A stretch of 64,000 nt of DNA from an uncultured Acidobacteriota bacterium (GCA_963700145.1 OY969474.1:480001-544000), one strand, 5' to 3'; positions 30,946 to 64,000 are shown, numbered from the stretch's first letter. Notes: generated from the sequence alone by a model not told the origin. Program-made: numbers and translations.

Positions 30946-30958
30946 CCCCCGCTCGTGA

Positions 30959-34968: not shown

Positions 34969-36225
34969 TCACGCCGAGTCCAGCTCCTCGGCGGCCTCCT
35001 CCGCCACGTCGGCCGGGGAGAGCAGCAGCGGCAGAGAGGCGATCGCGGCCACCAGATAGAGGCACGCCGCCACGTTCAACATCACCGTCGCTCCGGTGAC
35101 GTCCGCCAGGGTGCTGCCGAGCCCCATCCCGGCGAGCATCGTCAGCGAGATCACGGTGGTGTAGGCGCCGAAGACCCGCCCCCGGTACTCGTCCGTGGTG
35201 CTGGTCTGGAGCAGGATCTGCGCCCCGACCAGCCAGGCCATCGCCGGAAGGCCGACGATCACCAGCAGAACCAGGGTCAGCCAGAACGACGGCACGTTGA
35301 CAATGACCAGGAAGATCAGGCCGAGGCTGAGCAGGCCTAGTCCGACCAGGCGAGCCGCACGGACGTTGCTGCTGGTGTGGCCAATGACGAACCCGCCGAG
35401 CATTCCACCCAGGCCTCGCGCCGTGAGCAGCCAGCCGAACTCTGCGGCTCCGACCTTCAGGCCGTCCTTGACGAAGACGACGAGCAGGGCGGTGAGGATG
35501 CTGTCGCCGAAGGTGGAGATGCCCTGCACCAGGAAGAGCCAAAGAACCCGCCGATTGCGGGAGAGCAGACGGAGACCCTCGATCCACTCGCTTCCCCAAC
35601 CGGTCCCGCGGCGGCGAGAGACGTCGGCGGGAGCTCCCTCGACGGCCGGTACAGGGGCGGTCCGCCCCCCCATGAAGGAGAGGAACAACGCCGACACAAG
35701 GAAGGAGGCCGAATCGAGCACCACGACGCCGGACAGACCCACCACCCCGAGCAGTCCGCCGCCCACCAACGGGCCGATGAGCCGGGCGATGTTGTCGCTC
35801 AGGGCGTCGAGCGAGTTCGCGGCCCCGAGCTGGCGCTTGCCCACCAGCAGCGGGATCAGGGAGAACTTGGCGGGGACGAAGAACAGCGAAACGAGCGCGC
35901 TCAGGAACGCCACCACGTAGAGAATCCAGACCGTGTCAGCCGAGCGCGCCAGCAGGAAGAAGGGGACGAGCACGGCACGCAGGATGTCGCAGACGATGAG
36001 CGTGGATTTGCGGTTCCAGCGGTCCACGAAGACGCCTGCCAGGGAGGACAAGAAGAGCCCCGGCAGCAGCTGCGTGACGAAAAGGGTTCCCGTGATCGTC
36101 GCTGATCCGGTCAGCTCATAGGCGTAGAAGGGAAGGGCGGTGATGCGCACCCAATCCCCGATCGCGGAGATGACCTGGCCGATGAGCAGCAGCGAGAAGT
36201 CGCGCTGCCGCAGGACTTCCCACAT
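34969..36225 (-). CDS. MFS transporter (DHA3-like exporter)
   Basis: About 12 TM helices; GQVISAIGDW, AGVFVDRWNRK, YRGRVFG. Alternative TTG start at 36270 overlaps the NRPS stop. Confidence 0.9.
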   Translation of the reverse strand: MWEVLRQRDFSLLLIGQVISAIGDWVRITALPFYAYELTGSATITGTLFVTQLLPGLFLSSLAGVFVDRWNRKSTLIVCDILRAVLVPFFLLARSADTVWILYVVAFLSALVSLFFVPAKFSLIPLLVGKRQLGAANSLDALSDNIARLIGPLVGGGLLGVVGLSGVVVLDSASFLVSALFLSFMGGRTAPVPAVEGAPADVSRRRGTGWGSEWIEGLRLLSRNRRVLWLFLVQGISTFGDSILTALLVVFVKDGLKVGAAEFGWLLTARGLGGMLGGFVIGHTSSNVRAARLVGLGLLSLGLIFLVIVNVPSFWLTLVLLVIVGLPAMAWLVGAQILLQTSTTDEYRGRVFGAYTTVISLTMLAGMGLGSTLADVTGATVMLNVAACLYLVAAIASLPLLLSPADVAEEAAEELDSA

Positions 36226-43697: not shown

Positions 43698-46600
43698 AAC
43701 GCCGCTCCTTCCGCTTCCGTGTCGCTCGGCTCGAACAGCGCCGCCGCCTCCTCGTCCGAGAGGCCGGCCAGGCGCAGGAACAGCTCCGCCTCGCGCAGCA
43801 GGCGCCGGCCCTCGACCGGGTCCTGCGTCAGCGCCGCCGCCAGGCTCGCCACCGTCGGGTTCTTGAAGATGGCATCGGGAGTGATCTCGACCTGCAGCGC
43901 CTCCTGGATCTGCAAGGCGGCACGCAGTGCGAGCAGAGAGTCGCCGCCGCGCTCGACGAAGTGGTCCTCGACGCCCAGCCTCGGGACCTCCAGGACTTCG
44001 GCCCAGACATCGGCCAGGACCTCCTCCAGAGGCGTGCGCGGCACGTGGCGCAGTGAGACCTCCACCGTGGCCTCCTCCGGCGGCACCAGCGCCTTGCGGT
44101 CCACCTTGCCGTTGGGCGTCAGCGGGAAGGCCGGCAGCGGCACGAACCGGGAAGGGAGCATGTACTCGGGCAGGCTCTGCCGCAGCCATGCGCGGAACTC
44201 CGGCGCATCCGGCGTGCGCGACTCCGGCACGAACCAGGCCACGAGCTGGAGGTCGGCGACGGGGCCGGTCCGTCGGTGGGCGGTGACGACCGCCTGTTTG
44301 ACTTCCGCATGGCGGCAGAGGGCCGACTCGATCTCGCCGACCTCGATGCGGAAGCCGTGGCGCTTCACCTGCCGGTCGCTGCGTCCGAGGAAGATCAAGG
44401 CGCCGTCCCGCCGGCGGCGAGCGACGTCGCCCGTGTCGTAGAGCCGGCCGCCGGGCGAGTCGGCGAAGGGGTCGGGCACGAAGCGCTCGGCCGTGAGCCC
44501 GGTCAGCCCATGGTAGCCGCGCGCCAGCCCGCCGCCGCCGATGAAGAGAGAGCCGGCGGCGCCGAGGGGCAGGAGCTGCATGCTCGGGTCGAGGACGTAG
44601 AACCGAGTGTCGTCGATCGGCCGGCCGAGAGGGATCGTCGCCTCCGTCTCCGCCTCCGCCCTGATCCGCTCCATGGACGACCAGACGGTGGTCTCGGTGG
44701 GACCATAGACGTTCCACAGCGCGGCGCTACGCTCGCGCAACGCCGACGCCAACTCGCCGGGCAGCGCCTCGCCGCCGCACAGAGCGGTCAGACCAGGGGC
44801 GCCCTCCCACCCGGCCTCGATCAGCGCCCGCCACGTGGCCGGGGTCGCCTGCAGGAGCGTGGTGCCTTCCCGCTCCATCCGTGCCAGCAGCCGCAGGGCG
44901 TCCGGGACCTCGTCGGCTGCGGCGATCGCCAGCCGCGCGCCGCTGATCAGCGGCAGGAAGATCTCCAGGGCCGCAATGTCGAACGACACGGTGGTGACGG
45001 CCAAGAGGACGTCGCCGGCGGTGGGCTGCAGGCGTCGCTGCATGGCGGTGAGCAGGTTGGAGAGCGCCGAGTGCGGCACGGCGACGCCCTTGGGGCGCCC
45101 GGTGGAGCCGGAAGTGTAGATGACGTATGCGAGATTGGAGGGCAGGACGGCCGGTGTGGCGCCCGCCGCCGCCGGAGACGGTCCGGCCAACGGAAGGTCC
45201 TCCCACGCCAGCACCTGGGCGGCACCGGTCGGCAGCGCGGCGACCAGGCGGCGCTCCGTCAGGAGCACCGCGGGACCGGCGTCCTCCAGCATCAGCGCGA
45301 GACGTTGCCGCGGGAACTTGGGATCGAGGGGGACGTAGGCGCCACCGGCGGCGAGGACGCCGAGAAGGGCCAGGGGCAGTCGCTCGGAGCGGTCCAGGAA
45401 GACTCCGACGCGGATCTCGGGACCGACGCCGCGGGCGCGCAGACATTCCGCCAGTCGGCGAACCCGCCGGCTCACCTCGGCCCTCGTCAGGGTGACGTCC
45501 CCGAAGCTGACGGCGACGGCGTCCGGCGCCGCGGCGGCGCTGATCGCGAAGAGGTCGTGGACGCAGAGCCGGTCGGCCGCCGCGACCTCGGTGTCGTTCA
45601 GCTCGCGGAGGAGAAACCGCTCCTCGGAACGACCCAGCATGGGCACGGCGCCGAGGGCGCGGCCGGGGCTCGCCACGAGACCGTGGAGGACGTGGACCAG
45701 GTGGGAGAGGAGCCGCTCCATGTCCATACCGTCGAAGCGGCGCTGGTCGTACGACAGGCGAAGGAGCATCTCCTGGTCCGGCACGACGACCAGGGCCAGC
45801 GGGTAGTTCATCTGCTCGCGCGTGTGCAGGTGATGGAGCTCGAGACCGCAGTCCGCAGCGCCGGTCGCCGGTGCGGCGGGGTAGCTCTCGTAGATCACCA
45901 GGGTTTCGAAGAGCGGCGTGCCGGTCCGCACCCCGCTCCAGCCCTGGATCTGAGGCAGGGGAGTGGACTCGTGCTCGCGCATCTCCGCCTGCAGGCGCTG
46001 GAGCCCCTGCAGCCATGGCCGCACCGGCGACTGGGCCGGCACGCGGACGCGCGTTGGGAGGGTGTTGATGAACAGCCCGACGGTGTCTTCCATCCCGCCC
46101 GCGGAGCGCCCGGAGACGGTCGTGCCGAAGACCACGTCCTCGACACCGCAGTAGCGGCTGAGGAGGAGCGCCCAGCTGCCCTGGACGAGCGTGTTGAGCG
46201 TCACCTGGAGGCCGAGGGCGCCGGCCTGCAGCGCGGCCGTCTGTTCGGCGTCGAGGCGCAGCCCCCGCTCGCCCGGTTCCCCCGCCGGCGGACCGCTGCC
46301 GCTGCGCGGGCTGTCGAGCTCGATGGACAAGGGTTCCGCGAAGCCCTCGAGCAGCCTCGCCCAGAACGCCCGCGACCTCTCGCTGTCCTGGGCCTGCAGG
46401 GACAGGATGTGATCGCGGAACGGGCGCGGGCGTTCGAGCGGCGGCACGCCGCCGCGCCGGACCTCGGCGTAGGCGGCGAACAGATCAGGGAGGACAATGG
46501 CGATGGACCAGCCGTCCATCAGGATGTGATGAAAAGTCCACAGGAAGTAGTGGAGCCGCGGTGCGGCGCGCGCGACCGCCACGCGCAGGAGGGGTGCTTG

Positions 46601-46957
46601 GGCGAAGTCGAAGCGCTGCCGCCGGTCGCTCGCCAGCAGCTCCGCGAGTCGGCGTTCCCGATCGCTCTCCGCGATGTCGCTCCAGTCGTGCACGATCAGA
46701 GGCAGCTCGACCTCCCGATGCACCACCTGCAGCGGCTTGCCGGCGCCCTGCCAATGGAGCGACGTGCGCAGCACCTCGTGTCGCTGCAGCACGTGACGCC
46801 AAGCTGCGGTGAAGGCCGGCAGGTCCAGGTCGCCGGCGAGGGCGTAGGCGAACTGCTCGAGGTAGATCCCCGGACGGGGGTCCGAGAGGCAGTGGAACAG
46901 CATCCCTTCCTGGAGGGGGGAGAGCTCGTAGATGTCCTCGACGTCCGTCACCGTCAT
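43694..46957 (-). CDS. NRPS module: C(DCL)-A(Gly)-T
   Basis: EDIYELSPLQEG start; HHILMDG; A-domain code read as DILQLGVVWK (Gly type); GGDS carrier. Confidence 0.93.
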   Translation of the reverse strand: MTVTDVEDIYELSPLQEGMLFHCLSDPRPGIYLEQFAYALAGDLDLPAFTAAWRHVLQRHEVLRTSLHWQGAGKPLQVVHREVELPLIVHDWSDIAESDRERRLAELLASDRRQRFDFAQAPLLRVAVARAAPRLHYFLWTFHHILMDGWSIAIVLPDLFAAYAEVRRGGVPPLERPRPFRDHILSLQAQDSERSRAFWARLLEGFAEPLSIELDSPRSGSGPPAGEPGERGLRLDAEQTAALQAGALGLQVTLNTLVQGSWALLLSRYCGVEDVVFGTTVSGRSAGGMEDTVGLFINTLPTRVRVPAQSPVRPWLQGLQRLQAEMREHESTPLPQIQGWSGVRTGTPLFETLVIYESYPAAPATGAADCGLELHHLHTREQMNYPLALVVVPDQEMLLRLSYDQRRFDGMDMERLLSHLVHVLHGLVASPGRALGAVPMLGRSEERFLLRELNDTEVAAADRLCVHDLFAISAAAAPDAVAVSFGDVTLTRAEVSRRVRRLAECLRARGVGPEIRVGVFLDRSERLPLALLGVLAAGGAYVPLDPKFPRQRLALMLEDAGPAVLLTERRLVAALPTGAAQVLAWEDLPLAGPSPAAAGATPAVLPSNLAYVIYTSGSTGRPKGVAVPHSALSNLLTAMQRRLQPTAGDVLLAVTTVSFDIAALEIFLPLISGARLAIAAADEVPDALRLLARMEREGTTLLQATPATWRALIEAGWEGAPGLTALCGGEALPGELASALRERSAALWNVYGPTETTVWSSMERIRAEAETEATIPLGRPIDDTRFYVLDPSMQLLPLGAAGSLFIGGGGLARGYHGLTGLTAERFVPDPFADSPGGRLYDTGDVARRRRDGALIFLGRSDRQVKRHGFRIEVGEIESALCRHAEVKQAVVTAHRRTGPVADLQLVAWFVPESRTPDAPEFRAWLRQSLPEYMLPSRFVPLPAFPLTPNGKVDRKALVPPEEATVEVSLRHVPRTPLEEVLADVWAEVLEVPRLGVEDHFVERGGDSLLALRAALQIQEALQVEITPDAIFKNPTVASLAAALTQDPVEGRRLLREAELFLRLAGLSDEEAAALFEPSDTEAEGAAL

Positions 46958-46963: not shown

Positions 46964-49900
46964 CTAACCGATCCGTGCGATCAGCCGGTTGAGCTTGGCC
47001 TGGCTCAGCCGCGCGGCCGGGAAGCTCTCGGCCTCGTGAGCCTGCTCTGGGGCGCCGGCTTCGAGCAGCCGGTCGACGGCGTCCTCGAAGTCGCGAGCCA
47101 ATCCGAGGAGGGTTTCGGGCCGATGCAGGTTGGCACTGTGGCGGAATTCGAGCCGCAGCCGGTCGTCGGCGACGCTGCCGTCGATCTCGATCACATACGG
47201 CCGCATGTTCCGCGGCGAGCGTCGTGGGCCGGCAGGCTCACGGGCCCATACGAACGGGCGCGCGCCGCCCTCCGTTACGCCGGGGCGAGCGGAGAAGTTG
47301 AACACCACCTCGGCGCGGGGGAGCGCCCGCAACATGGATGCCCCTTCGCCTCGTCCGTCGGCGTAACGCAGCAGACCGTATCCGATGCCGCCGCGCCGTA
47401 CGCGCCGCAGCTCCCGGCGCACAGCGGCGAGGGTCTCGGCCGGAGAGCCGTCGCCGGCGGCGAGGAGCACGGGATAGATGCAGGTGAACCAGCCGGCGGT
47501 GCGCGACGTGTCGAGGTCGGGGAAGAGATCCTCCCGGCCGTGCCCTTCGAGGTCGACCAGCAAGGGGACGGCGCCGAGGCGGCGCGCGAAGGCCTGAGCA
47601 ACTGCCGCCAGGACCAGCGTGCTCACCTGGACGCGCAGCCTCCCGGCCTGCTGCCGGAGCCGACGAGTCCGCTCGGCGTCGAGCTCGCCGGCGATGCTGC
47701 GTGCCGAGGCCTCGGTGTTCGCCGCGCCGGAGAAGTCCACCGCGAGCCGCCCGGCGTGGGCGCGGGCGGGATCCAGCCAGAAGGAGAGCTCGGCCAGGAT
47801 CTCGGGAGAACGCGCGAGATCCGGCAGTCTCTCGGCCCAGCGCCGGAACGGTGCCGTGCGAGACGGCAGGACAGGCCGCCGCCCGCCAGTCCACTGGCGC
47901 GCCGCTTCCAGCAAGTCCGCCAGCAGGAAAGGCCAGGAGGCGTCGTCGGTCACCGCGTGGTGGAGGACGACGAAGAGACGACGGCCCGAGTCGGCGGTCT
48001 CGAACAGGACGATCCGGACGAGCGGACCGCGGGTCAGGTCCAAGCTCGCCTGCAGCGCGGCGGCGGCCGTTTCGAGCGCGCGCATTCTGGCCGGCGCGGG
48101 CAGCGCGGAGAGATCGATCGATGAGAAAGAGCACGCGATCTCCGGCGGCACTTGGAACGCGCGCCAGCCGTCTCGGGTAGCCGCGAACCGCAGGCACAGG
48201 CTGTCATGGTGTGCCGCCAGCGCGCCCGCGGCCAGGCGCAGGCTCCACGCCGGAAGGGGATCGTGCAGCTCCATCAACACGGACTGGTTCCAGTGATGGG
48301 GATCAGTCAGCTCCTGCTCGAACAGCCAGCGCTGGATCGGGGTCAGCGGCAGCTCACCGCCGCCTATCCCGGCGGCGTCGGGCTCCACTAGGGCCGCCAG
48401 CTCGGCGAGGACCGGCCGCTGGAAGATCTGCGTGGGCGTCACACGGACTCCGACCTGTCCGGCGCGCACCGCCACACGCACCGCCGCGATGGAGTCCCCG
48501 CCCCGCGTGATGAAGTGGTCGAAACGTTGCACGCTTTCAATTCCGAGGACTTCTTCCCACACCCCGGCGAGCGCCCGCTCGGTCCTCGTCAGTGGAGCGG
48601 CGAAGGATGTGGCGCTTGACGCCGGGATGGCGCTTGGGAACGGTAACGCTTGCCGGTCCAGCTTTCCGTTCGGAGTGAGTGGGAGCTCCCTCAGCTCGAC
48701 GAACGCCGCCGGCAGCATGTTGGCGGGCAGGGAGTCCTGCAGGAAGGCGCGCAGCTCGGCCGCGGTGGGAACGGCCGGCCCGCGAGGGACGATGTAGGCC
48801 ACCAACCGTCCGTCGGGCCCATCGCCGCGCACGGCGGCGGCGGCGGCGGCCACCGCGGGGTGGCGGCCCAGGACCCTCTCGATCTCCCCCAGCTCGATGC
48901 GCGAGCCGTGGATCTTCACCTGGTCGTCCATCCGCCCCAGGATCTCGAGGCGCCCTCCTGGCCGGAGACGGCCACGATCACCGGTGCGATAGAGACGCCG
49001 CCCGTCGGCGGCAAAGGGGTCCGGCACGAAGCGTTCCGCGGTGAGCTGCGGGTTGCCTACGTAGCCGCGGGCGAGACCGCCGCCGCCGATGTAGACCTCT
49101 CCCACTACCCCCGGGGGCACGACCTCCAGATCGGCGTCCAGCACGCGGACGCTGGTATCGGCGATCGGCCGGCCGGCGGTCACCGGTCCGCCGCCAGGCT
49201 CGATCCGCTCGACGGTGGACCAGATCGTGGTCTCGGTCGGCCCGTAGACGTTCCACACCGCCTCCGCCGAAGTGAGCAGCGCGTCGGCTAGGGGGCGCGG
49301 CAACCCTTCGCCGCCGCAGAGCACCCTGAATGAGCCCGCTCCCCGCCAGTCCGCCGCCAGCAGCATGCGCCAGGTGGACGGCGTGGCTTGCATCACCGTG
49401 GCGCCCGAATCAGCCAGAGCGTCCCTCAGCGCCAGCCCGTCCCGCGCCATACCCTCGGTGGCGATCTCCACCCGGCCACCCGCGAGGAGCGGTAGGAACA
49501 GCTCCAGAGCGGCGATGTCGAAGGCGAGCGTAGTCACCGCCAGGAGCGAGTCGTCGGCGGTGAGGCCGGGGCGCTCGAGCATCGAGGCGAGACAGTTGGT
49601 CAGGGCCGAGTGAGGGACCGGTACACCTTTGGGCTCTCCTGTCGAGCCGGAGGTGTAGAGGACGTACGCGAGGTTCGCGGCGCCAGCGGCGGGCAGCGGA
49701 CGCGCGTCCGGCTCGCGGTCGATGAGCGGCGCCTCCCGATCGAGCAGAAGCGCGCGGCCGCCGAGCGTGGCGGCCCAGGCCTCGCGCCCGCTCCAGGTCA
49801 CGATGATGACCGGCCTGGAGCTGCGCACGATGTGCTGGAGGCGCCGGTCCGGATGGCCGGGGTCCAGCGGCACGTAGGCGCCGCCGGCCTTGAGCACCGC

Positions 49901-52900
49901 CAGCAGGGCGACCAACAGGTCCGCCGAGCGCTCGAGACAGATACCGACGGTTGCCTCCGGTCCGACGCCGAGCCGGCGAAGGTAATGGGCCAGGCGGTTG
50001 GCGGCGCGGTCGAGTCCCGCATACGTCAGGTGACGACCTGCGGCAGTCGCCGCAACCGTGTCGGGGTGCAGGTCCACCCGGGCTTCGATCCTCTGCGGCA
50101 GGCAGACGTCCGGACGAGCGACCCGCTCGCTGCAGGCCGTCTCGGCCAAGATCTGCTCCCACTCGTCCGGGCGGAGTAGGGGCAGGCGCCGGATCGTCTC
50201 GTCGGGATGCGCGAGCGCGCTGTCGAGGAGGGTCTCGAGGTGCCTGAGCCAGCGCCCGACCGTGGTGAGGTCGAAGAGGGCTAGGTCGTGCTCGCAGGCG
50301 ATCTCGACGGCGTGGTCGCCCAGCGTCAGGTCGAGGTAGAGATCGTCCTTGGCGCCGCCGTTGTGCCGGGACGACACCCGCGCCTCGAGGTCGCCGAGCC
50401 GCATCCGCTCGTCCCGCACCCGGTCCATGTTGAAAAGCACCGAGACGAGAGGCGAGCGATTGGCAGCACGGGGGAGCTTGAGCTGGCGAACCAGGCGGTG
50501 GAACGGGTAGTCCTGGTGCTCATACGCATCCAGCAGCGCGCGCTGCACGCCGGCAAGGTATGCACGCCACGGCGGATCTCCTTGGACGCGGCTGCGGATG
50601 GGCAAGAGGTTTACGCAGTACCCGACCGGCGGCGTCTCGCCCAAGGTCGCCTGACCTGCCGCGGTGACGCCGACCACCACGTCGCTCTGTCCCGACAAAC
50701 GGTGGAGCAGGAGCTGCCAGGCCGCCAGCAGGAGAGTGAACACCGTGGTGCTTTGGCGCGCGGCGGCAGCACGCAGCCGGTCGTGAACGCGCGGGCCTAA
50801 GGTCGCCGTCTGGCGTGCGCCGAGGAAACTCCGCACCGCCGGCCGCGGCCGGTCGGACGGGAGCTCCAAGGGGGCCGGGGGATCGACAAAGGCCTGCAGC
50901 CAGTAGGCCTCGCTCTCCGCCAGGGTCTCCGCGCGCTGCCGTTCCGATTGCCAGCTCACGAACGCGCTGAAGGGGACGGCTGCAGGAAGCTCCGCCTTGC
51001 CGCCGGTACGCTCGGACGCGTAGAGCAGGCCCAACTCCCGCAGCAGCACGCCATTGGAGAGGCCGTCGGTGATCAGGTGATGGAGCGTCAAGCCGAGGAT
51101 GTGGCTGCGAGGCTCCAGACGAAGCAGCCGCGCACGTGCCAGCGGACCACGCTCGAAGTCGAACGACTCACGGGCGTCGCGACCCAGGATCTCGGCGGCG
51201 GCACGTCGGCGGCTCTCCTCGTCCAGGCTCGAGAGGTCCTGGAACGCCAGGTCGAGGCGCATCCGCGGCTGGACGATCTGCGCGTCTCCCAGGGGACTGA
51301 AGGTCGTTCGCAGGGCCTCGTGACGGTCGGCGAGCCGCTGCAGCGCGCGCTGCAGGCTCTCCTCCCGGAGGTCGCCCACCAACTCGATCTCCAGGGACTC
51401 GTGATAGGCGCGGGCGGCCTCGTCGCTGATCTGAACGACGGCCCACAGGGCTGTCTGCGCCTCGGTCATCGGAATGCGGTACGGCCCGGCGGGCGGCCGC
51501 CGCTGGGCGCGCGGCGGCAGGAAGCCACCCTCCCGCATGGCATCGACGGTCCGGCGGACCGCCGCCTTCACGCTCTCCAGGTCCGCATCGGTGTGGGCGG
51601 TCGAGACATAGCAGGCCCTCCCCTCCCACACGTACACGCCGTTGTCCAGGAGATGGAAGAAGAAAAGGTCCGGATACTGATAGCCGCGCTCGAAGACGAA
51701 GCGGAAGAGAGAGCCGATGTGCATCATGCGGATCGGCACCTCCTGCTCCTCGAAAAGAGCGTCGAGCTCCGCCACCAGGCGCTCGGTGCGCCGGGTGAGC
51801 CCCTCCTGCAGCTCAGGGCCGGCCTGCCGCAGATGCTCCAGCGAGGCGCAGACCGCCGCCATTGTCAGCGGGTGCTTGATATAGGTGCCGGCGATGTATG
51901 TCGTCTCCTCGCGGGGGTAGGAGGAGTCGCCGTACTGCCACTGGCCGCCGTCGACGCCGTCCATGAAGGCTCGCTTGCCGGCCACCGCGCCGATCGGGAT
52001 GCCGCCGCCAATCGCCTTGCCGTAGGTGACCAGGTCCGCCTGCACGCCGTAGAGGGCCTGGGCGCCGCCCGGGTGCATGCGGAAGCCGGTGATGACCTCG
52101 TCGAAGATCAGCGTCGCGCCGGACTCGGTGGTCACCCGGCGCAACGCGCGCAAGAAGTCGGCGGTCTCGAATCCGGGCCGGCGGCTCTGCTGCGGCTCGA
52201 CCAGCACGGCGGCGAGCTCGTGAGCGCGAGCCCGGACGGCCTCGACCGAAGCGGGACTGCAGTAGTCGAAAATGAGCACGTTGTCCGAAACGTGAGGGGA
52301 AACCCCCGGCGCCATGGGCGCGGCGCGGGTGCCGCCGTCCGGAGTGCGCTCCATGCGCACCATCACCTCGTCCGACCAGCCGTGGTACGAGCCGGCGAAG
52401 ACCGCGATGCGGGTGCGGCGCGTGCGAGCCCGGGCCAGGCGCAGCGCCACCATGACGGCCTCCGTCCCGGAATTGAAGAACGCGGCCCGATCCAGGCCGG
52501 TCATCTCGCAGATCAGACGCGCCGCGTGTCCGGCCAGCGGTGAGAGCAGGCCGATCTGGATGCCGCGTGACAGATGCTCTTGGATGGCTTCCAGGATGAA
52601 CGGAGGGGAGTGGCCGTACAGCAGCGAGCCGAAGCCCATGGTGATGTCGACGTACTCGTTGCCGTCCACGTCCCATACTCGCGCGCCGGCGGCGCGCTGG
52701 GTATGGATCGGATACTGGAGCTCTTTCCAGATCTGTCGGAAGCCGGCCACGCTCCGCTCATCGGCCAGAAAGGGGCGGCTCTCCATCGCCATGCGCTTGG
52801 ACCCAGGGGTCTTGCTCCCGAGCCGTGCAACCAGAGCCGTCAGATGCTGCTGCTGGTGAGGGGTGAGTCCCCCCTCGGGGCCGCGTTCGATCTTGCGGTA

Positions 52901-55900
52901 AGCGACATAGGGGTCCGGCAGGTACCTGGGAGCGAGGCCGGGCAGGTCGGCCGCTGCCGGTTGGGAAGCGGCTGCCACGGCGACCGCCGCGGCGGACGCA
53001 GCCGCCGCGGGTGCCACGATCGCCGGGACCTCGACCGTGGGAGCTCCCGCGGCCATCACGGTACGCAGCAGGCTGAGCTGCTCGGACATGAGCTGGAGCA
53101 GCGGCGCCAGAGCTCCACCGGCGGGTCCGGCGGCCAGAGCGGTCGCCGCCTCGCCCAGGCCGGCAACGGTGAGGGCCAGGTCCGGCGACGGAAGTGGAGC
53201 GGAGGTGGTAGGCGCCGGCGGCTCGGGAGGGAGCTCCTGGAGGAGATGGTTGGCCAACTCCGCCACGGACTGGTGCTCTTCCACCAAGCGGCGAAAGGGA
53301 ATCCGCACGCCGAACGCCCGCTCGAGGCTCTGCGCGGCCTGCAGGAGGGTCAGCGAGTCCGCGCCGAGCGCGAAGAAGGAAGACGTCGGAACGACCTCGT
53401 CCGCCGGAATGCCCAGAAGGTTGCCGAAGATCTCCGCCACTCGGAGAACGAGCTTGTCGCGGCGCATGTCCTGCACTCCGTCAACCGACAGCACCGGCTC
53501 CGGTGTGCGAGCGTCTCGGCGCGCATCCGAGCCGTTCGAGCCAGGGACTTCTGGCGCGAGCGGCTGTGCCGCGCGCCGGTGGGGGGCACCCAGCCAACTG
53601 GAGCCGGGAGATGGAGACTCTATCCAGAACCGCTGGCGCTCGAAGGGATAGGTGGGCAGGGGGCACCGGCGGCGGCGCTCGCCGGCGTGGAAGCCGGCCC
53701 AATCGATCGCGGCTCCGGCCAGCCAGAGGCGGCCAAGCGCCTCGACGAGCGCCGCCTGATCGCCGTCGCCGTCCGCCGCCGCCAGCGACGCGACGACGGA
53801 CTGCCCCTCTGCGCGCGCGGGATGCCGCCGAGCGAACCCCGCCAGGGTCCGGCCGGGCCCGACCTCCAGGAGGATCCGCTCCGGCTCCGCGAGCAGCACG
53901 GCGGCGGCGTCGAGGAAGCGGACCGTGCCGCGCATCTGTCGCGCCCAGTAGCCCGGGTCCTGGGCCTCACCGGCGGTGATCCAGGTACCGGTCAGGGTGG
54001 AAACCCAGGGAATTGCGGGCGGGCTCAGCGCGACACGCTCGAGCTCTCGCCGGAACGGCTCCATCAGCGGCTCGACCGTCGGCGAATGGAAGGCGTGGGA
54101 GGTCTCGAGACGGCGGCAGGCCGTGTGCCGCCGCGCCAACCTCGCCTCGAGAGCCGCTACCGCCGCGGGCGGTCCAGCGACGACGACCCGGCCCGGTTCG
54201 TTGACGGCCGCGACGCAGAGGTCCTCACTCTCCAGCAGGGGGGCCACGTCGTCGACCGAGGCCGCAACCGCGAGCATCGTGCCGCCCGGGAGCGCGTCCA
54301 TCAGCCGGCCGCGGACGGCGAGCAGCCGCAAGGCGTCGGGTAACGAGAACACCCCGCCGAGGCAGGCGGCCACGTACTCGCCCACGCTGTGGCCGAGCAG
54401 GGCCTGCGGCAGGACTCCCCAAGACATCCAGAGCTTCGCCAGCGCGTACTCGACGACGAACAGCGCGGGTTGCGCGAAACGCGTCTGTCGCAAGAGCTCA
54501 CGGGCGGTCTCTTCGCCGCCCGGCGGCGGGTACAGCACCTCCAGCAGGTCGCGCTCGAGCAGCGGATGCAGCACCTCCGCGCAGGCTGCGAGCTCGCCGC
54601 GAAAAGCCGGCTCGGCGAGCAGCTCACGGCCCATGTTGACGTGCTGCGCTCCCTGGCCTGGGAAGAGGAACGCCACCGGCCGATCGCCGCGGTCCTGGAG
54701 TCCGTCCAGCACGCGCCCGGCGTCGCCGCCGCGGAGAGCTGCGATCGCTTCGTCGCGGTTGGGGCAGCGGACCACGCGGCGGTGCCTGAAGACACGACGG
54801 CCGATCTGGAGCGTGAAGGCGACATCGGGCAGCGCCACCTCCGGATGGGACTCGAGATGCCGGGCGAGGTTGCGGGCGGCGGTGTCCAGGCCGGCGGCAC
54901 TGCGTGCGGAGAGCGGCAGGAGCTGCCACGAGCGGGAGGGTTCCGGCGGCTCGGTCGCGGGAGCCTCCTCCAGCACGACGTGCGCGTTGGTGCCGCCGAT
55001 TCCGAACGAGCTGACGCCGGCGCGGCGCGGCAGGGCCGGCGGGCTCCATTCCCGCAGCTCGGTATTGACGTAGAACGGCCCGCTGGCGAAGTCGATGCGC
55101 GGGTTGGGGCGCTCGAAATGGAGGCTGGGGGGGATCTGGCGCTTCTCGAGAGCCAGGACTGTCTTGATCAGGCCGGCCACCCCGGCGGCGGTGTCCAGAT
55201 GCCCGACGTTGCTCTTGATCGAGCCGAGAGCGCAGGAGCCCTGCCCGGCCGCGGCCCCGAAGACCTGGTGCAGCGCTGCGACCTCGATGGGGTCTCCCAA
55301 GGCGGTGCCGGTGCCATGGGTCTCGACGTAGGTGATGTCTGCGGCAGCGCAGCCGGCCGCCGTCTGTGCCGCGGCGATCACCCGGCTCTGGCCCTCGATG
55401 CTGGGCGCCGTGTAGCCCACCTTCGCGGCGCCGTCGTTGTTGATGGCGCTGCCTTTGATCACGGCACGGACGCGAAAGCCCCCGGCGATGGCGGCGTCCA
55501 AGCGTTGCAGGACCACCACCCCCGCGCCGTTGCCGAAGGTCGTGCCTTGCGCGCGCTCGTCGAACGCGCGGCAGTGGCCGTCCGGCGACGCGATGCCGCC
55601 CTCCTGGTAGAGATAGCCGGCTTCCTGCGGGAAGCTGATGGTCACCCCGCCGGCGCAGGCCACCTCGCACTCGCCGTCGAGGAGGCTCTTGCAGGCGAGG
55701 TGAACGGCGACCAGGGAGGTGGAGCAGGCCGTCTGCACCGCGACGCTCGGCCCCCGCAGGTCAAGCTTGTAGGAGACCCGGGTCGGCATGAAGTCCTTGT
55801 CGTTGGCGACGCAGAGCTGATAGCCGCCGACCGCCGACCGGATGCCGGGATGAGGAGCGAGGTTCGCGAGCAGATAGGTGTTGAGCCCGGTCCCGGCGAA

Positions 55901-58900
55901 GACTCCCACCCGCCCTGGATAGCGGGCGGGGTCGAGCCCTGCGTCCTCCAGCGCTTCCGACACCGTCTCGAGGAAGACGCGTTGCTGCGGGTCGGTGATC
56001 TCCGCCTCCCTGCGGCTCATGCCGAAGAAGGCGGCGTCGAACTCGTCGGCCCCTCGCAGCACCCCTTTCGCCCGGACGTAGTCGGGGTTCTGCAGGAGCT
56101 CCGGCTCGACCCCCGCCGCCGCCAGCTCCTGGTGCGAGAAGAAGGAGATGGACTCGACGCCCCGGCACAGGTTGTCCCAGAGCTCGTCGACGCCGGCGGC
56201 GCCGGGAAAGCGCCCGGCCATGCCGATCACGGCCACGGCGGTGGTCTGTGAGATCGGGCCCTCGGCGGGACCGGGGGCCGGAGCTGCGGCGGCAGGCTCC
56301 GCGATAGCGAGAGCCGCGGCGGCCAGGAAGGTCGCCTGCGCCTTGACGGTGGGATGCCTGAACAGCTCGACGAGCGGGAAGTCGTGGCCGCACCGCTCCA
56401 CGAGGCGGGTGTGGAGCTGCGCCAAGCGCAGAGAGTGGCCGCCGAGGTCGAAGAAGTTGTCGTAGAGGCCTACGCTCTCGGTCTTCAGCACCTCCTGCCA
56501 GAGAGCGGCGATCGTGCGCTCGAGCGCGGTGGTGGGAGGTCTGTGGGCGAGGGTCGTGACCTGCCTGCCGGCAGGCGCGGGCAGCGCCTCGCGGTTCACC
56601 TTCCCGTTCGGCGTCAGCGGGAGCGAGTCGAGGCGCACGAACGCCGCCGGCATCATGAAGGTGGGGAGCCGCGAAGCCAGAGAGCCCCGCAGCGCGTCCT
56701 CGGCCCCGGCCGCCCCTGCGCTGGCGACCCAGTAGGCCACCAGGGAAAGCTCCCCCGTGACCGGCCAGTCGCGCCGCGCCACGACGGCTGCCTGTGCCAC
56801 CTCCGGCAAGCCCGTCAGGAGGGCCTCGACCTCCCCCGGCTCGATCCGGAACCCGCGGATCTTCACCTGGGTGTCGATGCGGCCGAGGAACTCGAGCTGG
56901 CCGTCGGCGAGAGGCCGCGCCAGGTCTCCCGTGCGATACAGGCGCGCGCCGGGAATGGGCGCGAACGGATCGGGCACGAACCTCTCGGCCGTCAGGTCGG
57001 CGCGGTCGAGGTAGCCGCGGGCGAGACCCGCACCGCCGAGAAATAGCTCGCCGCGGACGCCGATCGGCACCGGCTGCAGGTGGCGGTCGAGAAGGTGAGC
57101 GCGGGTTCCCGCGACCGGTCTGCCGATCGTCGGCTGCCGCTGGGCTCCACGTTCGACGGTCGTCCACGTCGAGTAGGTGGTGGCTTCCGAGGGGCCGTAG
57201 AGGTTCAACACCCGCTCGACGCCCGGCCGACGATAGAGCTGATCGCTCAGCTCGCGCTGCAGCGGCTCGCCGGCGAGGTTGACCGTGCGGACCGAGGCGG
57301 GTAGACGCCCGCCATCGACTAGGGCAGCCGCCGCCGACGGCACCGTGTTGAGCAGCCGCACCTCCGCCGCGGCCGGATGAGAGGGCAGGGCGAGCGCATC
57401 CTCGCCGACGATGACTCGACCGCCCCACGCGAGGGGCACGAAGATCTCGAAGACCGACAGGTCGAAGCAGATGGAGGTGGAGGCGAAGACGCCACCGAGA
57501 TCGTCGTCGGAGAAAACCCCGCGCGCCCAGCGCGCAAAGGTCACCGCGCTCCGGTGCTCGATGGCCACGCCCTTGGGCCTCCCCGTCGAGCCCGAGGTGT
57601 AAATGAGGTAGGCCAGGTTCTCCGGGCCGGCCTCCGCCACCGGCCACGGCTCGGCCTCCTCCGCGAGCACGTCGTCGAGCCATACCACCGCGCCCGCCCA
57701 GGCGCCGCGCTCGCGCAGGATGTGCTCGACGACCGCAGCGCCGGATCGGCGGGTGGCCACCAGAACTCGCGACCGCGAGTCCGCGAGCATCAGGACGAGG
57801 CGCTCGCGCGGGTAGAGCGGGTCGAGCGGCAGGTAGGCGCCCCCGGCCCTGAGGATGCCCAGCATGGACGCCACCATCGCGACCGACCGGTCGCCCAACA
57901 GACCGACGACGACCTCGGGTCCCACGCCCACCCGCGCCAGCCGCCACGCGACCCGGTTCGCCAGCCGGTCCAGCTCCGCGTACGTGACGCTGCCTCGACG
58001 GTCGACCACCGCCACGGCGTCAGGGCGCGCCGCCACCTGCGCCGCGAAGAGCTCGTCTAGGCGGCACCCGCTCGGCTCGTCGCCGGACGTGCCGTGCCAC
58101 TCGACGAGGATCTGGTGCTTCTCCGCGGGCGTCACCAACGGCAGCTCCGACAGGCGGCTCACCGGCGACGCCGCGGCCGCGTCGAGCAGCGTCCGGAAGC
58201 GCTCCAGAAGCCGTACCGCCGTGGTCTCGTCGAACAGGTCGGTGGAGTACTGGAGATAGCCGGTGAGCCCTTGCCGGTCCTCAGCCAGCGTCAGAGCGAG
58301 ATCGAAAGGGGTGGTCTCCGGTTCGAGGTCGAGAGAGGAGAGCTCGAGCGCCTCCAGCGCCAGAGCGGGCCGCGGCGCGTTCTGCAACTGGAACATCACC
58401 TGGACCAACGGCTGGCGGTCGAGGCTCCGCTCGGGCTGGAGGACCTCCACCAGCTTCTCGAAGGGCGCGTCCTGGTGGTCGAAATCCTCCAGACAGGAGC
58501 TCCGCACCCGCTCGAGGTGGGCGCGGAAGGTCGGGTCGCCGGAGAGGTCCGCGCGCAGCACCAAGGTGTTGACGAACAGGCCGATCAGCGGCTCGACCTC
58601 CGTGCGGTTCCGGTTCGCGATCGGAGATCCGACGGCCAGGTCCATCTGATCGGTGTGACGGAAGAGCAGGACCTGGAAGACCGCGAGCAGCGTCATGAAC
58701 GGCGTTGCTCCACAGCGGCGGCCGACCGTCTTGACGGTTTCCCAGCGGGCACCGGGAAGGGCAAAGGGGACAAGCGCCCCACGGAAGCTCAGGACCGCCG
58801 GCCGCGGTCGGTCCACCGGGAGGTCCAATCCACCCGCCAGACCGGCGAGCCGCCGTTTCCAGTAGGCGAGCTGCGTCTCCAAGCGCGCCGCATGGGCCTC

Positions 58901-59626
58901 GCCGTGCTGCGCGATCGCGTAGTCCACGTACTGGAGCGGGAGCTCGGGGAGCGGTGACGGCAGGCCGCGCCGGAACGCGGAGTACAGGGTCGCCAGCTCC
59001 TGCAGCAGGATGCCTGCCGACCAGCCGTCCGAGACGATGTGATGGAGGCTCAGCAGCAGGACGTGAGCGTCGTCGCCGGTGTGCACCAGGATCGCGCGCA
59101 GCAGCGGCGCGCGGCTCAGGTCGAAGGGTCGGCTCGCCGCGTGCCGCAGCAGGCGCGGCAGCTCGTCGCGGCGCGCTGCCGCGGGCAGATGGGCGAGCTC
59201 GATCGCATGCAGCGGCGCCGCGGCATCGGGCACGACTACCTGGACCGGCTCGCCATCCCGAACCTCGAAGCGGGTGCGGAGAACGGCGTGCCGCCGCACG
59301 ATCTCCGCCAGACTGCGCGCCAGCGCCGTGCGATCCAGCGCGCCGTCGATGGCGATGGGCCACGCGACGTTGTAGACGCGCTTGTCCGCGGCAAGGCGGT
59401 GAACGAACCACAGGCGTCGCTGCGGGAACGAGAGCGGGAACGGGCCGGTGCCGCCGTGGGCGACGAGGGGAGCGTCGTCGACTGCGAGCCCCTGCTGCGC
59501 CAGCAGGACTTCCAGGGCGCGGCGGCGCTCGGGACTCAGCCGGGAGAGATCCACGGTCAGGCCCTCGGGCACTCGACCCTCCTCATCCCTCGCCTGCCCC
59601 TCTCTCGGTGTGGTCAGACTCTGCAC
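46964..59626 (-). CDS. Hybrid NRPS-PKS: C-A(Ala)-T-KS-AT-ACP-AMT-C-A(Gly)-T-E
   Basis: A1 code DLFNNALTYK; KS TACSTS/HGTGT/GHLD; AT GHSVG+HAFH; ACP GADS; class III aminotransferase FDEVITGFR/TYGKAIGGG; A2 code DILQLGVIWK; E domain. Alternative GTG start at 59572. Confidence 0.94.
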   Translation of the reverse strand: MQSLTTPREGQARDEEGRVPEGLTVDLSRLSPERRRALEVLLAQQGLAVDDAPLVAHGGTGPFPLSFPQRRLWFVHRLAADKRVYNVAWPIAIDGALDRTALARSLAEIVRRHAVLRTRFEVRDGEPVQVVVPDAAAPLHAIELAHLPAAARRDELPRLLRHAASRPFDLSRAPLLRAILVHTGDDAHVLLLSLHHIVSDGWSAGILLQELATLYSAFRRGLPSPLPELPLQYVDYAIAQHGEAHAARLETQLAYWKRRLAGLAGGLDLPVDRPRPAVLSFRGALVPFALPGARWETVKTVGRRCGATPFMTLLAVFQVLLFRHTDQMDLAVGSPIANRNRTEVEPLIGLFVNTLVLRADLSGDPTFRAHLERVRSSCLEDFDHQDAPFEKLVEVLQPERSLDRQPLVQVMFQLQNAPRPALALEALELSSLDLEPETTPFDLALTLAEDRQGLTGYLQYSTDLFDETTAVRLLERFRTLLDAAAASPVSRLSELPLVTPAEKHQILVEWHGTSGDEPSGCRLDELFAAQVAARPDAVAVVDRRGSVTYAELDRLANRVAWRLARVGVGPEVVVGLLGDRSVAMVASMLGILRAGGAYLPLDPLYPRERLVLMLADSRSRVLVATRRSGAAVVEHILRERGAWAGAVVWLDDVLAEEAEPWPVAEAGPENLAYLIYTSGSTGRPKGVAIEHRSAVTFARWARGVFSDDDLGGVFASTSICFDLSVFEIFVPLAWGGRVIVGEDALALPSHPAAAEVRLLNTVPSAAAALVDGGRLPASVRTVNLAGEPLQRELSDQLYRRPGVERVLNLYGPSEATTYSTWTTVERGAQRQPTIGRPVAGTRAHLLDRHLQPVPIGVRGELFLGGAGLARGYLDRADLTAERFVPDPFAPIPGARLYRTGDLARPLADGQLEFLGRIDTQVKIRGFRIEPGEVEALLTGLPEVAQAAVVARRDWPVTGELSLVAYWVASAGAAGAEDALRGSLASRLPTFMMPAAFVRLDSLPLTPNGKVNREALPAPAGRQVTTLAHRPPTTALERTIAALWQEVLKTESVGLYDNFFDLGGHSLRLAQLHTRLVERCGHDFPLVELFRHPTVKAQATFLAAAALAIAEPAAAAPAPGPAEGPISQTTAVAVIGMAGRFPGAAGVDELWDNLCRGVESISFFSHQELAAAGVEPELLQNPDYVRAKGVLRGADEFDAAFFGMSRREAEITDPQQRVFLETVSEALEDAGLDPARYPGRVGVFAGTGLNTYLLANLAPHPGIRSAVGGYQLCVANDKDFMPTRVSYKLDLRGPSVAVQTACSTSLVAVHLACKSLLDGECEVACAGGVTISFPQEAGYLYQEGGIASPDGHCRAFDERAQGTTFGNGAGVVVLQRLDAAIAGGFRVRAVIKGSAINNDGAAKVGYTAPSIEGQSRVIAAAQTAAGCAAADITYVETHGTGTALGDPIEVAALHQVFGAAAGQGSCALGSIKSNVGHLDTAAGVAGLIKTVLALEKRQIPPSLHFERPNPRIDFASGPFYVNTELREWSPPALPRRAGVSSFGIGGTNAHVVLEEAPATEPPEPSRSWQLLPLSARSAAGLDTAARNLARHLESHPEVALPDVAFTLQIGRRVFRHRRVVRCPNRDEAIAALRGGDAGRVLDGLQDRGDRPVAFLFPGQGAQHVNMGRELLAEPAFRGELAACAEVLHPLLERDLLEVLYPPPGGEETARELLRQTRFAQPALFVVEYALAKLWMSWGVLPQALLGHSVGEYVAACLGGVFSLPDALRLLAVRGRLMDALPGGTMLAVAASVDDVAPLLESEDLCVAAVNEPGRVVVAGPPAAVAALEARLARRHTACRRLETSHAFHSPTVEPLMEPFRRELERVALSPPAIPWVSTLTGTWITAGEAQDPGYWARQMRGTVRFLDAAAVLLAEPERILLEVGPGRTLAGFARRHPARAEGQSVVASLAAADGDGDQAALVEALGRLWLAGAAIDWAGFHAGERRRRCPLPTYPFERQRFWIESPSPGSSWLGAPHRRAAQPLAPEVPGSNGSDARRDARTPEPVLSVDGVQDMRRDKLVLRVAEIFGNLLGIPADEVVPTSSFFALGADSLTLLQAAQSLERAFGVRIPFRRLVEEHQSVAELANHLLQELPPEPPAPTTSAPLPSPDLALTVAGLGEAATALAAGPAGGALAPLLQLMSEQLSLLRTVMAAGAPTVEVPAIVAPAAAASAAAVAVAAASQPAAADLPGLAPRYLPDPYVAYRKIERGPEGGLTPHQQQHLTALVARLGSKTPGSKRMAMESRPFLADERSVAGFRQIWKELQYPIHTQRAAGARVWDVDGNEYVDITMGFGSLLYGHSPPFILEAIQEHLSRGIQIGLLSPLAGHAARLICEMTGLDRAAFFNSGTEAVMVALRLARARTRRTRIAVFAGSYHGWSDEVMVRMERTPDGGTRAAPMAPGVSPHVSDNVLIFDYCSPASVEAVRARAHELAAVLVEPQQSRRPGFETADFLRALRRVTTESGATLIFDEVITGFRMHPGGAQALYGVQADLVTYGKAIGGGIPIGAVAGKRAFMDGVDGGQWQYGDSSYPREETTYIAGTYIKHPLTMAAVCASLEHLRQAGPELQEGLTRRTERLVAELDALFEEQEVPIRMMHIGSLFRFVFERGYQYPDLFFFHLLDNGVYVWEGRACYVSTAHTDADLESVKAAVRRTVDAMREGGFLPPRAQRRPPAGPYRIPMTEAQTALWAVVQISDEAARAYHESLEIELVGDLREESLQRALQRLADRHEALRTTFSPLGDAQIVQPRMRLDLAFQDLSSLDEESRRRAAAEILGRDARESFDFERGPLARARLLRLEPRSHILGLTLHHLITDGLSNGVLLRELGLLYASERTGGKAELPAAVPFSAFVSWQSERQRAETLAESEAYWLQAFVDPPAPLELPSDRPRPAVRSFLGARQTATLGPRVHDRLRAAAARQSTTVFTLLLAAWQLLLHRLSGQSDVVVGVTAAGQATLGETPPVGYCVNLLPIRSRVQGDPPWRAYLAGVQRALLDAYEHQDYPFHRLVRQLKLPRAANRSPLVSVLFNMDRVRDERMRLGDLEARVSSRHNGGAKDDLYLDLTLGDHAVEIACEHDLALFDLTTVGRWLRHLETLLDSALAHPDETIRRLPLLRPDEWEQILAETACSERVARPDVCLPQRIEARVDLHPDTVAATAAGRHLTYAGLDRAANRLAHYLRRLGVGPEATVGICLERSADLLVALLAVLKAGGAYVPLDPGHPDRRLQHIVRSSRPVIIVTWSGREAWAATLGGRALLLDREAPLIDREPDARPLPAAGAANLAYVLYTSGSTGEPKGVPVPHSALTNCLASMLERPGLTADDSLLAVTTLAFDIAALELFLPLLAGGRVEIATEGMARDGLALRDALADSGATVMQATPSTWRMLLAADWRGAGSFRVLCGGEGLPRPLADALLTSAEAVWNVYGPTETTIWSTVERIEPGGGPVTAGRPIADTSVRVLDADLEVVPPGVVGEVYIGGGGLARGYVGNPQLTAERFVPDPFAADGRRLYRTGDRGRLRPGGRLEILGRMDDQVKIHGSRIELGEIERVLGRHPAVAAAAAAVRGDGPDGRLVAYIVPRGPAVPTAAELRAFLQDSLPANMLPAAFVELRELPLTPNGKLDRQALPFPSAIPASSATSFAAPLTRTERALAGVWEEVLGIESVQRFDHFITRGGDSIAAVRVAVRAGQVGVRVTPTQIFQRPVLAELAALVEPDAAGIGGGELPLTPIQRWLFEQELTDPHHWNQSVLMELHDPLPAWSLRLAAGALAAHHDSLCLRFAATRDGWRAFQVPPEIACSFSSIDLSALPAPARMRALETAAAALQASLDLTRGPLVRIVLFETADSGRRLFVVLHHAVTDDASWPFLLADLLEAARQWTGGRRPVLPSRTAPFRRWAERLPDLARSPEILAELSFWLDPARAHAGRLAVDFSGAANTEASARSIAGELDAERTRRLRQQAGRLRVQVSTLVLAAVAQAFARRLGAVPLLVDLEGHGREDLFPDLDTSRTAGWFTCIYPVLLAAGDGSPAETLAAVRRELRRVRRGGIGYGLLRYADGRGEGASMLRALPRAEVVFNFSARPGVTEGGARPFVWAREPAGPRRSPRNMRPYVIEIDGSVADDRLRLEFRHSANLHRPETLLGLARDFEDAVDRLLEAGAPEQAHEAESFPAARLSQAKLNRLIARIG

Positions 59627-59635: not shown

Positions 59636-61248
59636 TCACGCCACGAGCGAGATCTGCGTGTCGACCCAACTCTGCAGCTCCGCGCCCGACAGCACCTCAC
59701 GCACCGCCGCGAGGTGCTGGACGAAGGGAATGTCGTCCTCGTAGCGCGGGATGCGGCCGGCGAACTCGTCGTGGAACTTGCGCAGCGGAGCGCTGAACGC
59801 GGCGCCGTCGAGGAAGTGGTAGGCCTGATGGCAGGACGCGGCGAGGATGGTCAGCACCGTCGAGACGTTGCGGGCGAGCTGCAGCGAGCGCCGGGCCGAG
59901 GTCATGCCCATGCTGACGACGTCCTGGTTCTGGCCGTTCGACGGCAGCGACTTGATGGAGGCAGGCGCCGCGAGGTCGAGGTTCTCGGCCGCGATGCTGG
60001 TGGCGAGGTACTGGCCGCCTTCGAACCCGCAGGCAAGACCCGGAGCGCCGTGGCTCAGGAACGGCGGCAGGGGCTTGTTCAGGTGGGGATCGAGAACGCG
60101 GTTGATCTGCCGCTCCGCGAGCACGCCGATTTCGGCGAGAGCCACGTTGAGGTGGTCGCAGGCCATGGCCACGTACTGGCCGTGGAAGTTGGCGCCGTGG
60201 AAGGTGTTGTCCGGGCTGTCGAAGATCAGCGGGTTGTCGTTGCAGGAGTTGACCTCTTCCTCGACGATCCGGCGGCAGAAGTCGAGGGTGTCCAGGACGG
60301 CGCCGAGGACCTGCGGCATGCTGCGGAGCGAATAGGCGTTCTGCAGATAGATGGTGCTGTCGAAGACCTCGCTCGACCCACCGCTCTTGGCGTGGATGGC
60401 GCGCATGATCTCGCCGTGCTCGCGGGTCAGCCGGCTCCCCGCGAGGAGCTGCCGCATCTCACGGGCGATCACGATCTGGCCGGAGTGGTTCTTGAGCACG
60501 TGGCCGCGCGGATCGAAGGGGCGGTCCGAAGCGCGCATGCACTGGACGATGTCGGCGGAGGTCAGGACGGCGAGCTTGAGCAGGCGGTAGGCCTCCACCA
60601 GAGCGAGACACGCGGCGCCGGTCATGGCCGAGGTGCCGTTGACGAGCGCGAGGCCTTCCTTGTACCCCAGCGTCGGCGGGGTGAGCCCGCGCTCCTGGAG
60701 CACCTCGGCCGTCGGACGCACCCGCCCGTCGGTCCGTACCAAGCCGCCGCCGATGACCGACAGCGCCATGTGGGAGAGGGGCGCCAGATCGCCGCTGGCG
60801 CCTAGCGACCCCTGCTGCGGGATCACCGGATGAATCCGTCCGTTGAGGAACTCACGCAGGAGCGTCAGGGCCGCCGGGCTGACGCCGGAGTACCCCTTGA
60901 TCAGGCAGTTCAGGCGCACCGTGAGAATGGCCCGCACCACGTGATCCTCGAGGGGCTCGCCGCCGCCTGCCGCGTGGGTGCGGATCAGGTTCTCCTGCAA
61001 CTGCGTCTTGAACGGCGCCGGGACGATCATGTGGATCATCTCGCCGAACCCGGTGTTGACGCCGTAGATCGGATACCCGGCCTCGCCCCATTCCTGGACG
61101 CGCTCGTGAGCACGGGCGACCGCGGCCAGCTGCGTCGGATCCAGATCGACTGTGTCTCCCTGCACGGCGGCGCGGTAGACGTCATAGATCGTCAGGTCTT
61201 CTCCCGTGAGGCTCACCGTCCCCATCGTTCTCGTCTCGTCGATTACGG

Positions 61249-61252
<4 letters not shown>
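59636..61252 (-). CDS. MIO-dependent tyrosine 2,3-aminomutase (aromatic ammonia-lyase family)
   Basis: YGVNTGFG, LQENLIRTHAAGGG, GASG MIO motif, NGTS, NDNP, HGANFHGQY, NQDVVSMG; GTGA-coupled to the upstream NRPS. Confidence 0.85.
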
Positions 61253-63999
<2,747 letters not shown>

Positions 64000-64000
64000 G

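Follow-up and report, generated by a model that had tools for sequence, protein, structure and literature searches.

In McyE and NdaF, the enzymes behind the Adda residue of microcystin and nodularin, an aminotransferase (AMT) domain acts on a beta-keto thioester at the junction from polyketide synthase (PKS) to nonribosomal peptide synthetase (NRPS), the substrate being a long reduced polyketide. In MycA and ItuA (AL-ACP-KS-AT-ACP-AMT-C-A-T), a non-reducing KS-AT-ACP is followed by a class III, pyridoxal phosphate (PLP)-dependent AMT and then by a C domain, and an acyl-ligase/ACP pair primes the KS with a fatty acyl chain. The MycA AMT is a biochemically characterised beta-ketothioester aminotransferase that works on a fatty substrate and takes its nitrogen from Gln (Aron et al. 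2005, as summarised in PMC3870968). Here we describe G7, a hybrid NRPS-PKS gene in a 64,000-nucleotide stretch of an uncultured Acidobacteriota genome (GCA_963700145.1 OY969474.1:480001-544000; G000:C1:480001-544000), hereafter the window. G7 shares the non-reducing KS-AT-ACP, the class III AMT and the downstream C domain of MycA and, like McyE and NdaF, carries its AMT at a PKS-to-NRPS junction; unlike them, its KS would be primed by peptidyl-Ala from a full C-A-T, and the AMT would meet an amino-acid-derived diketide. Such priming would place the ketone beside the amide-bearing carbon and lead to a 3,4-diamino acid instead of a beta-amino fatty acid. We place the G7 module, part of a real orphan cluster, among the MycA-type aminating modules as a variant, and consider its operation as a collinear aminating module, taken as a whole, probable on balance.

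Chemically, the proposed reaction resembles biotin synthesis, in which BioF makes 8-amino-7-oxononanoate and BioA transaminates it to 7,8-diaminononanoate: in either case an Ala-derived alpha-amino ketone becomes a vicinal diamine through a class III aminotransferase. The likeness drawn here is one of chemistry; BioF and BioA are free-standing, handle a free acid with a free amine and use S-adenosylmethionine as donor, whereas the G7 AMT is embedded and its substrate would be carrier-bound with the neighbouring nitrogen acylated. NRPS-bound Ala is also extended with a single malonyl or methylmalonyl unit by BlmVIII (bleomycin), by GlbC (glidobactin) and in the Ibu unit of lyngbyastatin; unlike G7, those Ala-primed modules reduce, dehydrate or keep the ketone, and none is known to be paired with an AMT. 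The diamine of guadinomine may derive from an aminomalonyl extender. Guadinomine itself is described as a PKS-NRPS product in which the vicinal diamine matters for activity (PMC6963908).

G7 spans window positions 46964-59626 on the minus strand, which carries all cluster features given below, and translates without a stop into 4220 aa; the public gene call (P0126) is 4202 aa long and starts 18 codons downstream. The gene is part of a nine-gene, twelve-module NRPS-PKS assembly line (genome 516267-563011) in a single-contig genome of 5.46 Mb and ~71% G+C. Pfam and motif scans gave the domain order C-A-T-KS-AT-ACP-AMT-C-A-T-E, corresponding to modules M7, M8 and M9, with E-values of 4.6e-244 for Condensation, 3.2e-159 for AMP-binding, 4.6e-74 for ketoacyl-synt, 6.2e-50 for Acyl_transf_1 and 7.2e-50 for Aminotran_3, plus three PP-binding stretches; all catalytic motifs are present. 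M7 consists of a C domain (HHIVSDG, residues 63-507; 58106..59440), an A domain (residues 530-1010; 56597..58039) and a T (PCP) domain (LGGHS at 1061; 56312..56524). It is followed by the KS (residues 1130-1505; 55112..56239), of condensing type by its complete Cys-His-His triad (TACST Cys1301, HGTGT 1437, NVGH 1473), the AT (residues 1653-1933; 53828..54670), the ACP (LGADS at 2087; 53222..53464) and the AMT (residues 2240-2700; 51527..52909). M9 (47027..51484) closes the protein with C (HHLITDG 2849), A (residues 3181-3650, Gly-type code DILQLGVIW), T (RGGDS 3708) and E (HHAVTDD 3889). The span 51500-58100, which the initial annotation had assigned to A-T-KS-AT-ACP-AMT, frames these domains correctly (window 51527-58039).

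The AMT sits straight after the ACP of a KR/DH/ER-free module and straight before a C domain. Families of KR, DH, ER and MT gave zero Pfam matches in G7 at E<=0.001, and the Ala/Pro-rich linkers between AT and ACP (~120 aa) and between ACP and AMT (~105 aa) are too short to accommodate a KR or DH, which bears out the earlier claim that neither acts in cis. The same applies to its neighbourhood: neither the cluster nor its scanned flanks, window 26747-37134 downstream and ~17 kb upstream (genome 563001-580000), yielded a KR, DH or short-chain dehydrogenase/reductase (SDR).

GHSxG together with HAFH is the textbook malonyl signature of AT domains, and the AT of G7 carries GHSVG at 1745 and HAFH at 1844, in agreement with the malonyl-type assignment proposed before. 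Pocket residues were located by anchoring on motifs, with the position set of Stachelhaus et al. 1999; the M7 A domain then reads DLFNNALTY, identical at 9/9 pocket residues to the McyA chain 8jbr, which is also the best single-domain PDB match (residues 700-900, ungapped over 201 aa, 234 bits). Entry 8JBR is cited by a preprint that gives the crystal structure of McyA2 (C-A-PCP) and in which, judged by hydroxylamine release, L-Ala was the substrate that C-A and C-A-PCP constructs of McyA2 activated best (bioRxiv 10.1101/2023.11.13.566838). Because its pocket matches that of McyA2 in full, the Ala assignment, already made in the initial annotation, rests on a tested relative. The code is unchanged in the ortholog described below; a search of the open-access literature for specificity codes as strings returned nothing. 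Upstream of the KS lies a full C-A-T whose A domain is of amino-acid type, not the fatty acyl-AMP ligase (FAAL)/ACP pair that primes the iturin family: an A-domain probe scored 1038 bits on the window protein vs 13-44 bits on FAAL-like partners, and 17-37 bits on those present in 11 of 121 classified homologs.

The AMT is a class III (Aminotran_3) PLP domain that retains its catalytic lysine and the family-conserved residues. Its match to the MycA AMT crystal structures 6kfm and 6kfu (E 4.8e-140, 470 bits) far exceeds that to glutamate-1-semialdehyde (GSA) aminomutases (~190 bits), and K2537 (codon 52016-52018), within LVTYGKAIGGG, aligns with the Schiff-base lysine of both 6kfm and the GSA aminomutase 2e7u. 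Of the 76 columns with >=95% conservation in an alignment of 139 AMT domains, 75 are retained in G7; the exception is T2488, where 135/139 domains have Pro. The intact PLP lysine attributed to this domain at the outset is thereby confirmed. Transamination of a peptidyl substrate is predicted from these features, and the conservation and a dN/dS of 0.17 speak for activity.

Among 300 genomes from the order, a search recovered one ortholog, in a genome from another GTDB family (G165) whose AMT is 85% identical; among 40 close relatives there was none. G165 keeps the gene order from A-MT-T-C-A-MT-T via the MIO gene, G7, G8 and G9 to the TE, together with the A stub of the last module and the E domain that follows the Gly-type one. 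Identity across the segments of G7 ranges from 58% (ACP-AMT linker) to 88% (KS). The lowest dN/dS values fall on the KS (0.168) and AMT (0.173), the other twelve segments lying at 0.257-0.592; coming from one sequence pair with a GC3 of ~87-93%, these values are indicative only, and they indicate that purifying selection in G7 is strongest on the AMT and KS. Since the whole layout is conserved in a second genome and these two domains are the most constrained, the evidence argues for a functional aminating module. The compared cluster spans are G165:C2:1511484-1546978 and genome 516267-554795; because the G7 segments are 58-88% identical while CysS, judged by a best match that could be a paralog, is 41% identical between these genomes, horizontal transfer of the cluster is suggested.

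In the proposed pathway, M7 would join L-Ala to the upstream peptide, and the KS would take peptidyl-Ala from the T domain and condense it with the malonyl group that the cis AT loads onto the ACP, giving peptidyl-NH-CH(CH3)-CO-CH2-CO-S-ACP. With no reductive domain at hand, the MycA-type AMT would transaminate the beta-ketone to 4-(N-peptidyl)-3,4-diaminopentanoyl-S-ACP, which the next C domain would hand over through its carboxyl group to Gly on M9; the chain would then continue with Gly, a D-configured residue (D-Xaa) and the last module to the TE. On the assembly line the 3-amine would be free and the 4-nitrogen would carry the upstream chain. A 3,4-diaminopentanoyl unit with the peptide bound to N-4 is the most economical reading of the domain content. 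For the 3,4-diaminopentanoate put forward in the initial annotation, the sequence premises stand (Ala-type A, malonyl-type AT, no reductive domain, MycA-like AMT, downstream C), whereas collinear chain transfer, the peptidyl transamination itself and the free 3-amine of the intermediate are inferred.

The later fate of the 3-amine is speculative. By analogy with the iturins it may serve as the ring-closing nucleophile, and TE-catalysed macrolactamisation appears the likeliest outcome; the ring would then be 13- or 16-membered, with a seven-module N-terminal tail. The two other fates raised earlier, an imidazoline and a protease-inhibitor isostere, are speculation as well, and the scanned cluster genes contain no Cy or other cyclodehydratase domain, so the imidazoline idea gains no support. 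A variant of the scheme holds that the amine is installed and consumed at once: it could attack the preceding amide carbonyl to form an imidazoline, become the macrolactam nitrogen, or undergo an N-to-N acyl shift. The geometry of a 1,2-diamine favours five-membered closure, the AMT-derived amine of the iturins closes their ring, and this assembly line ends in a TE; yet the missing cyclodehydratase speaks against the heterocycle and the sequence is silent on TE regiochemistry, and we regard immediate consumption as possible but rather doubt it. It is also conceivable that the mature product is unaminated, the AMT being weak on a peptidyl substrate or a reductase elsewhere acting first, to leave a 4-amino-3-oxo- or a statine-like 4-amino-3-hydroxy-pentanoate. 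Bleomycin, glidobactin and the lyngbyastatin Ibu unit, whose Ala-primed ketides retain a keto, hydroxyl or ene group, provide precedents. The available text of PMC3870968 describes no AMT assayed on such a substrate. Set against this, the G7 AMT preserves its PLP lysine and all but one of the near-invariant positions, is with the KS the most constrained domain, and has no KR or SDR in the cluster or scanned flanks, which makes an unaminated product unlikely.

A break in collinearity would change the substrate altogether: if G7 started its own chain, or if M8 were skipped, the AMT would act on a free Ala-derived ketide or on nothing. The tailoring gene G6 between G5 and G7 and the several non-canonical modules of the cluster would fit such a break. 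G7 nevertheless opens with a full C domain bearing an intact HHxxxDG, which scores like the other elongation C domains of the cluster (G1, G4 and G5: 333-386 bits; first C of G9: 351); the order G5-G6-G7-G8-G9 is kept in G165, and the strongest constraint rests on the KS and AMT, leaving the break very improbable. We give as little weight to an A domain that loads another substrate, such as Gly or Ser, and thereby yields a different 3,4-diamino acid. Specificity codes are predictions, and all other in-line examples have Gly-like codes, but the complete pocket identity to a McyA2 found experimentally to be L-Ala-specific, and the conservation of the code in the ortholog, both favour Ala.

Several points weigh against a collinear module delivering a 3,4-diaminopentanoyl unit. 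The case for it comes from sequence, and we know of no characterised AMT domain that takes an N-acyl-gamma-amino-beta-keto thioester as substrate. A reductase encoded at another place in the 5.46-Mb genome could act in trans, and the pathway presupposes collinearity over the G5/G6/G7 gene boundaries. In places this assembly line departs from textbook rules, with its AT-less KS-ACP, its Gly module with an E domain and its last module without an A core. The absolute dN/dS values are unreliable, as they derive from a single pair at high GC3. The ring-closure proposal is drawn from analogy, and the N-terminus is a possible competing free amine because the M1 pocket keeps Asp235.

To see how often the layout recurs, we classified 121 proteins, comprising the query, its truncated duplicate P0006 and 119 other listed homologs of the ACP-AMT region. 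In 52 the protein begins at the KS and in 48 at ACP-AMT, so that the priming partner lies outside it; a FAAL-like partner precedes the KS in 11, an ACP in two, an A-T loader with an NRPS-type A domain in three and C-T-KS in one. The in-line C-A-T-KS arrangement occurs in four: the window protein, P0006, the ortholog P0007 and P0008, from an Acidobacteriota metagenome-assembled genome (MAG). Among the best 150 AMT matches in a set of 50%-identity representatives, architectures were obtained for 13 of 133 new proteins, those with an AMT start beyond residue 1300, and two of these, P0240 and P0253, were also in-line. A contig search, for which the best 80 of 598 confirmed stretches were considered, had AMT-domain loci in its first 21; the remaining 59 (30-37% identity) resemble stand-alone GSA-aminomutase-type genes and were left unannotated. 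The 21 loci comprise seven A-T-KS-AT-ACP-AMT loaders plus one partial copy, two C-A-T-E-C-T-KS, three FAAL-like and eight of undetermined priming. A 2013 survey (PMC3870968, Table 2) lists Salinisphaera shabanensis F7QBN5 as C-A-CP-KS-AT-CP-PLP1-C-A-CP with a predicted Gly-Mal product, tabulated there without comment on the product in the text available. F7QBN5, P0008, P0240 and P0253 share the C-A-T-KS-AT-ACP-AMT-C order of G7, but the in-line homologs have Gly-like A codes (DILQLGLIW in P0008; those of P0240 and P0253 aligned uncertainly at two positions).

The G7 design is not a one-off, since its layout is found repeatedly and appears in the 2013 table. The novelty implied by the initial annotation is therefore reduced, the architecture being on record and amino-acid-primed AMT modules fairly common in metagenomes, while the cluster itself is an orphan. 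In AMT trees the window protein (P0001), P0007 and P0008 form a clade with support of 0.96 and 0.99 in two trees, with the P0008 AMT as sister to the window clade, and P0240 and P0253 form a separate clade, which places the in-line context in at least two AMT lineages. A KS tree did not separate the amino-acid-primed KS domains from others, since every nearest neighbour is a protein that starts at its KS and has its upstream partner outside it. The A-T-KS-AT-ACP-AMT loaders (loci L013, L016, L023, L025 and L022, proteins P0021 and P0026) come from Bacteroidota, Acidobacteriota and other MAGs and carry Pro-like (DVQFIAHVV/A), Thr-like (DFWNIGMVH) and Val/Ile-like (DAFFLGGTF) codes. By their predicted specificities they would give free 3,4-diamino acid starters, for example 3-amino-3-(pyrrolidin-2-yl)propanoate. 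In P0253 the AT region (residues ~1480-2010) reads GHAVG and not GHSxG in an otherwise intact C-A-T-KS-AT*-ACP-AMT module, and this AT is probably inactive.

In open-access papers and preprints (MIBiG and subscription papers being outside this scope) we found no NRPS-PKS-derived 3,4-diamino acid and no product assigned to any in-line or loading member of the family. To our knowledge, almost no natural products from Acidobacteriota have been characterised. A wider proposal, plausible but one we lean slightly against as a whole, is that amino-acid-primed KS-AT-ACP-AMT modules constitute an unrecognised, widespread class that installs beta,gamma-diamino acids ('aza-statines'), some placed in-line and primed with Gly or Ala, others serving as loaders whose codes are Pro-, Thr- or Val/Ile-like, and that here the 3-amine branch closes a small macrolactam to give a lariat peptide with a tail rich in beta-Tyr and N-methyl groups. 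If the prediction for G7 holds, nonribosomal assembly lines can write a vicinal diamine, as a 3,4-diamino acid, into a peptide backbone by means of one extra domain. As vicinal diamines bind metals, resist proteases and are prone to form heterocycles, the products could have unusual chemistry and pharmacology. For engineering, the module would be a compact part, a swap of KR for AMT turning a statine into an amino-statine. Since many uncultured bacteria share the layout, the characterisation of one example would annotate the whole class.

The nine genes of the assembly line are co-directional, and its downstream two thirds fall within the window. The substrates named here for the cluster's A-domain codes, Ala excepted, come from general knowledge of such codes. 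Upstream of the window, G1 encodes A-T-C-A(Gly-type)-T, and G2 (L006:12339-14999 = genome 555336-557999), which comes after it, encodes a KS-ACP with a KS-AT-type linker and no AT domain; no trans-AT or free-standing AT gene was found among the flanking genes scanned in the two intervals named above. G3 (L006:10808-12358 = genome 553805-555358, ~10 kb past the window end) encodes a 4-methylideneimidazole-5-one (MIO) enzyme of the histidine ammonia-lyase (HAL) type. It scores 348 bits against P. putida HAL vs 258 against SgcC4 and keeps the HAL-type motifs 'SH' and 'QEDHVSM', which hints that urocanate or another His-derived building block may be supplied from within the NRPS operon. G4 (L006:1692-11795) encodes C-A-MT-T-C-A-MT-T, and its two consecutive MT-bearing modules share one unusual A code, DACQLALVL, resembling the code DPAQLALVA of M6. 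M6, the C-A-T module of G5 (61249..64000, running off the window), has a code that we take to be close to the beta-tyrosine code of SgcC1. The adjacent G6 (59636..61255) encodes a second MIO enzyme (ASGDLAPLSH) with the Ala-Ser-Gly triad present; it is closest to the tyrosine 2,3-aminomutase SgcC4 (417 bits to 2ohy/2rjr, above every lyase) and is the probable supplier of beta-Tyr for M6.

Downstream of G7, G8 (43694..46957) encodes module M10, C-A-T with the Gly-type code DILQLGVVW, and G9 (36267..43700) encodes M11 and M12, C-A-T-E-C-(A C-terminal stub only)-T-TE, for chain release. Directly beyond G9 lies an MFS_3 (EntS-like) transporter gene, assigned by family match (34972..36200, start unmapped), the product of which is probably the exporter. 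In M9 (window 47027-50086), an E domain with an intact HHAVTDD follows the A domain despite its Gly-type code DILQLGVIW, and G8, the protein after G7, opens with the D-donor-type C motif LSPLQEGMLFH; this arrangement is kept in G165. The last module of G9 (window 36267-38100) reads C-(~80-aa A C-terminal subdomain)-T-TE, with the A core missing. As the stub also occurs in the G165 ortholog and P0240 likewise has a C-T-TE ending, it is, on sequence grounds, a designed feature and not a recent deletion.

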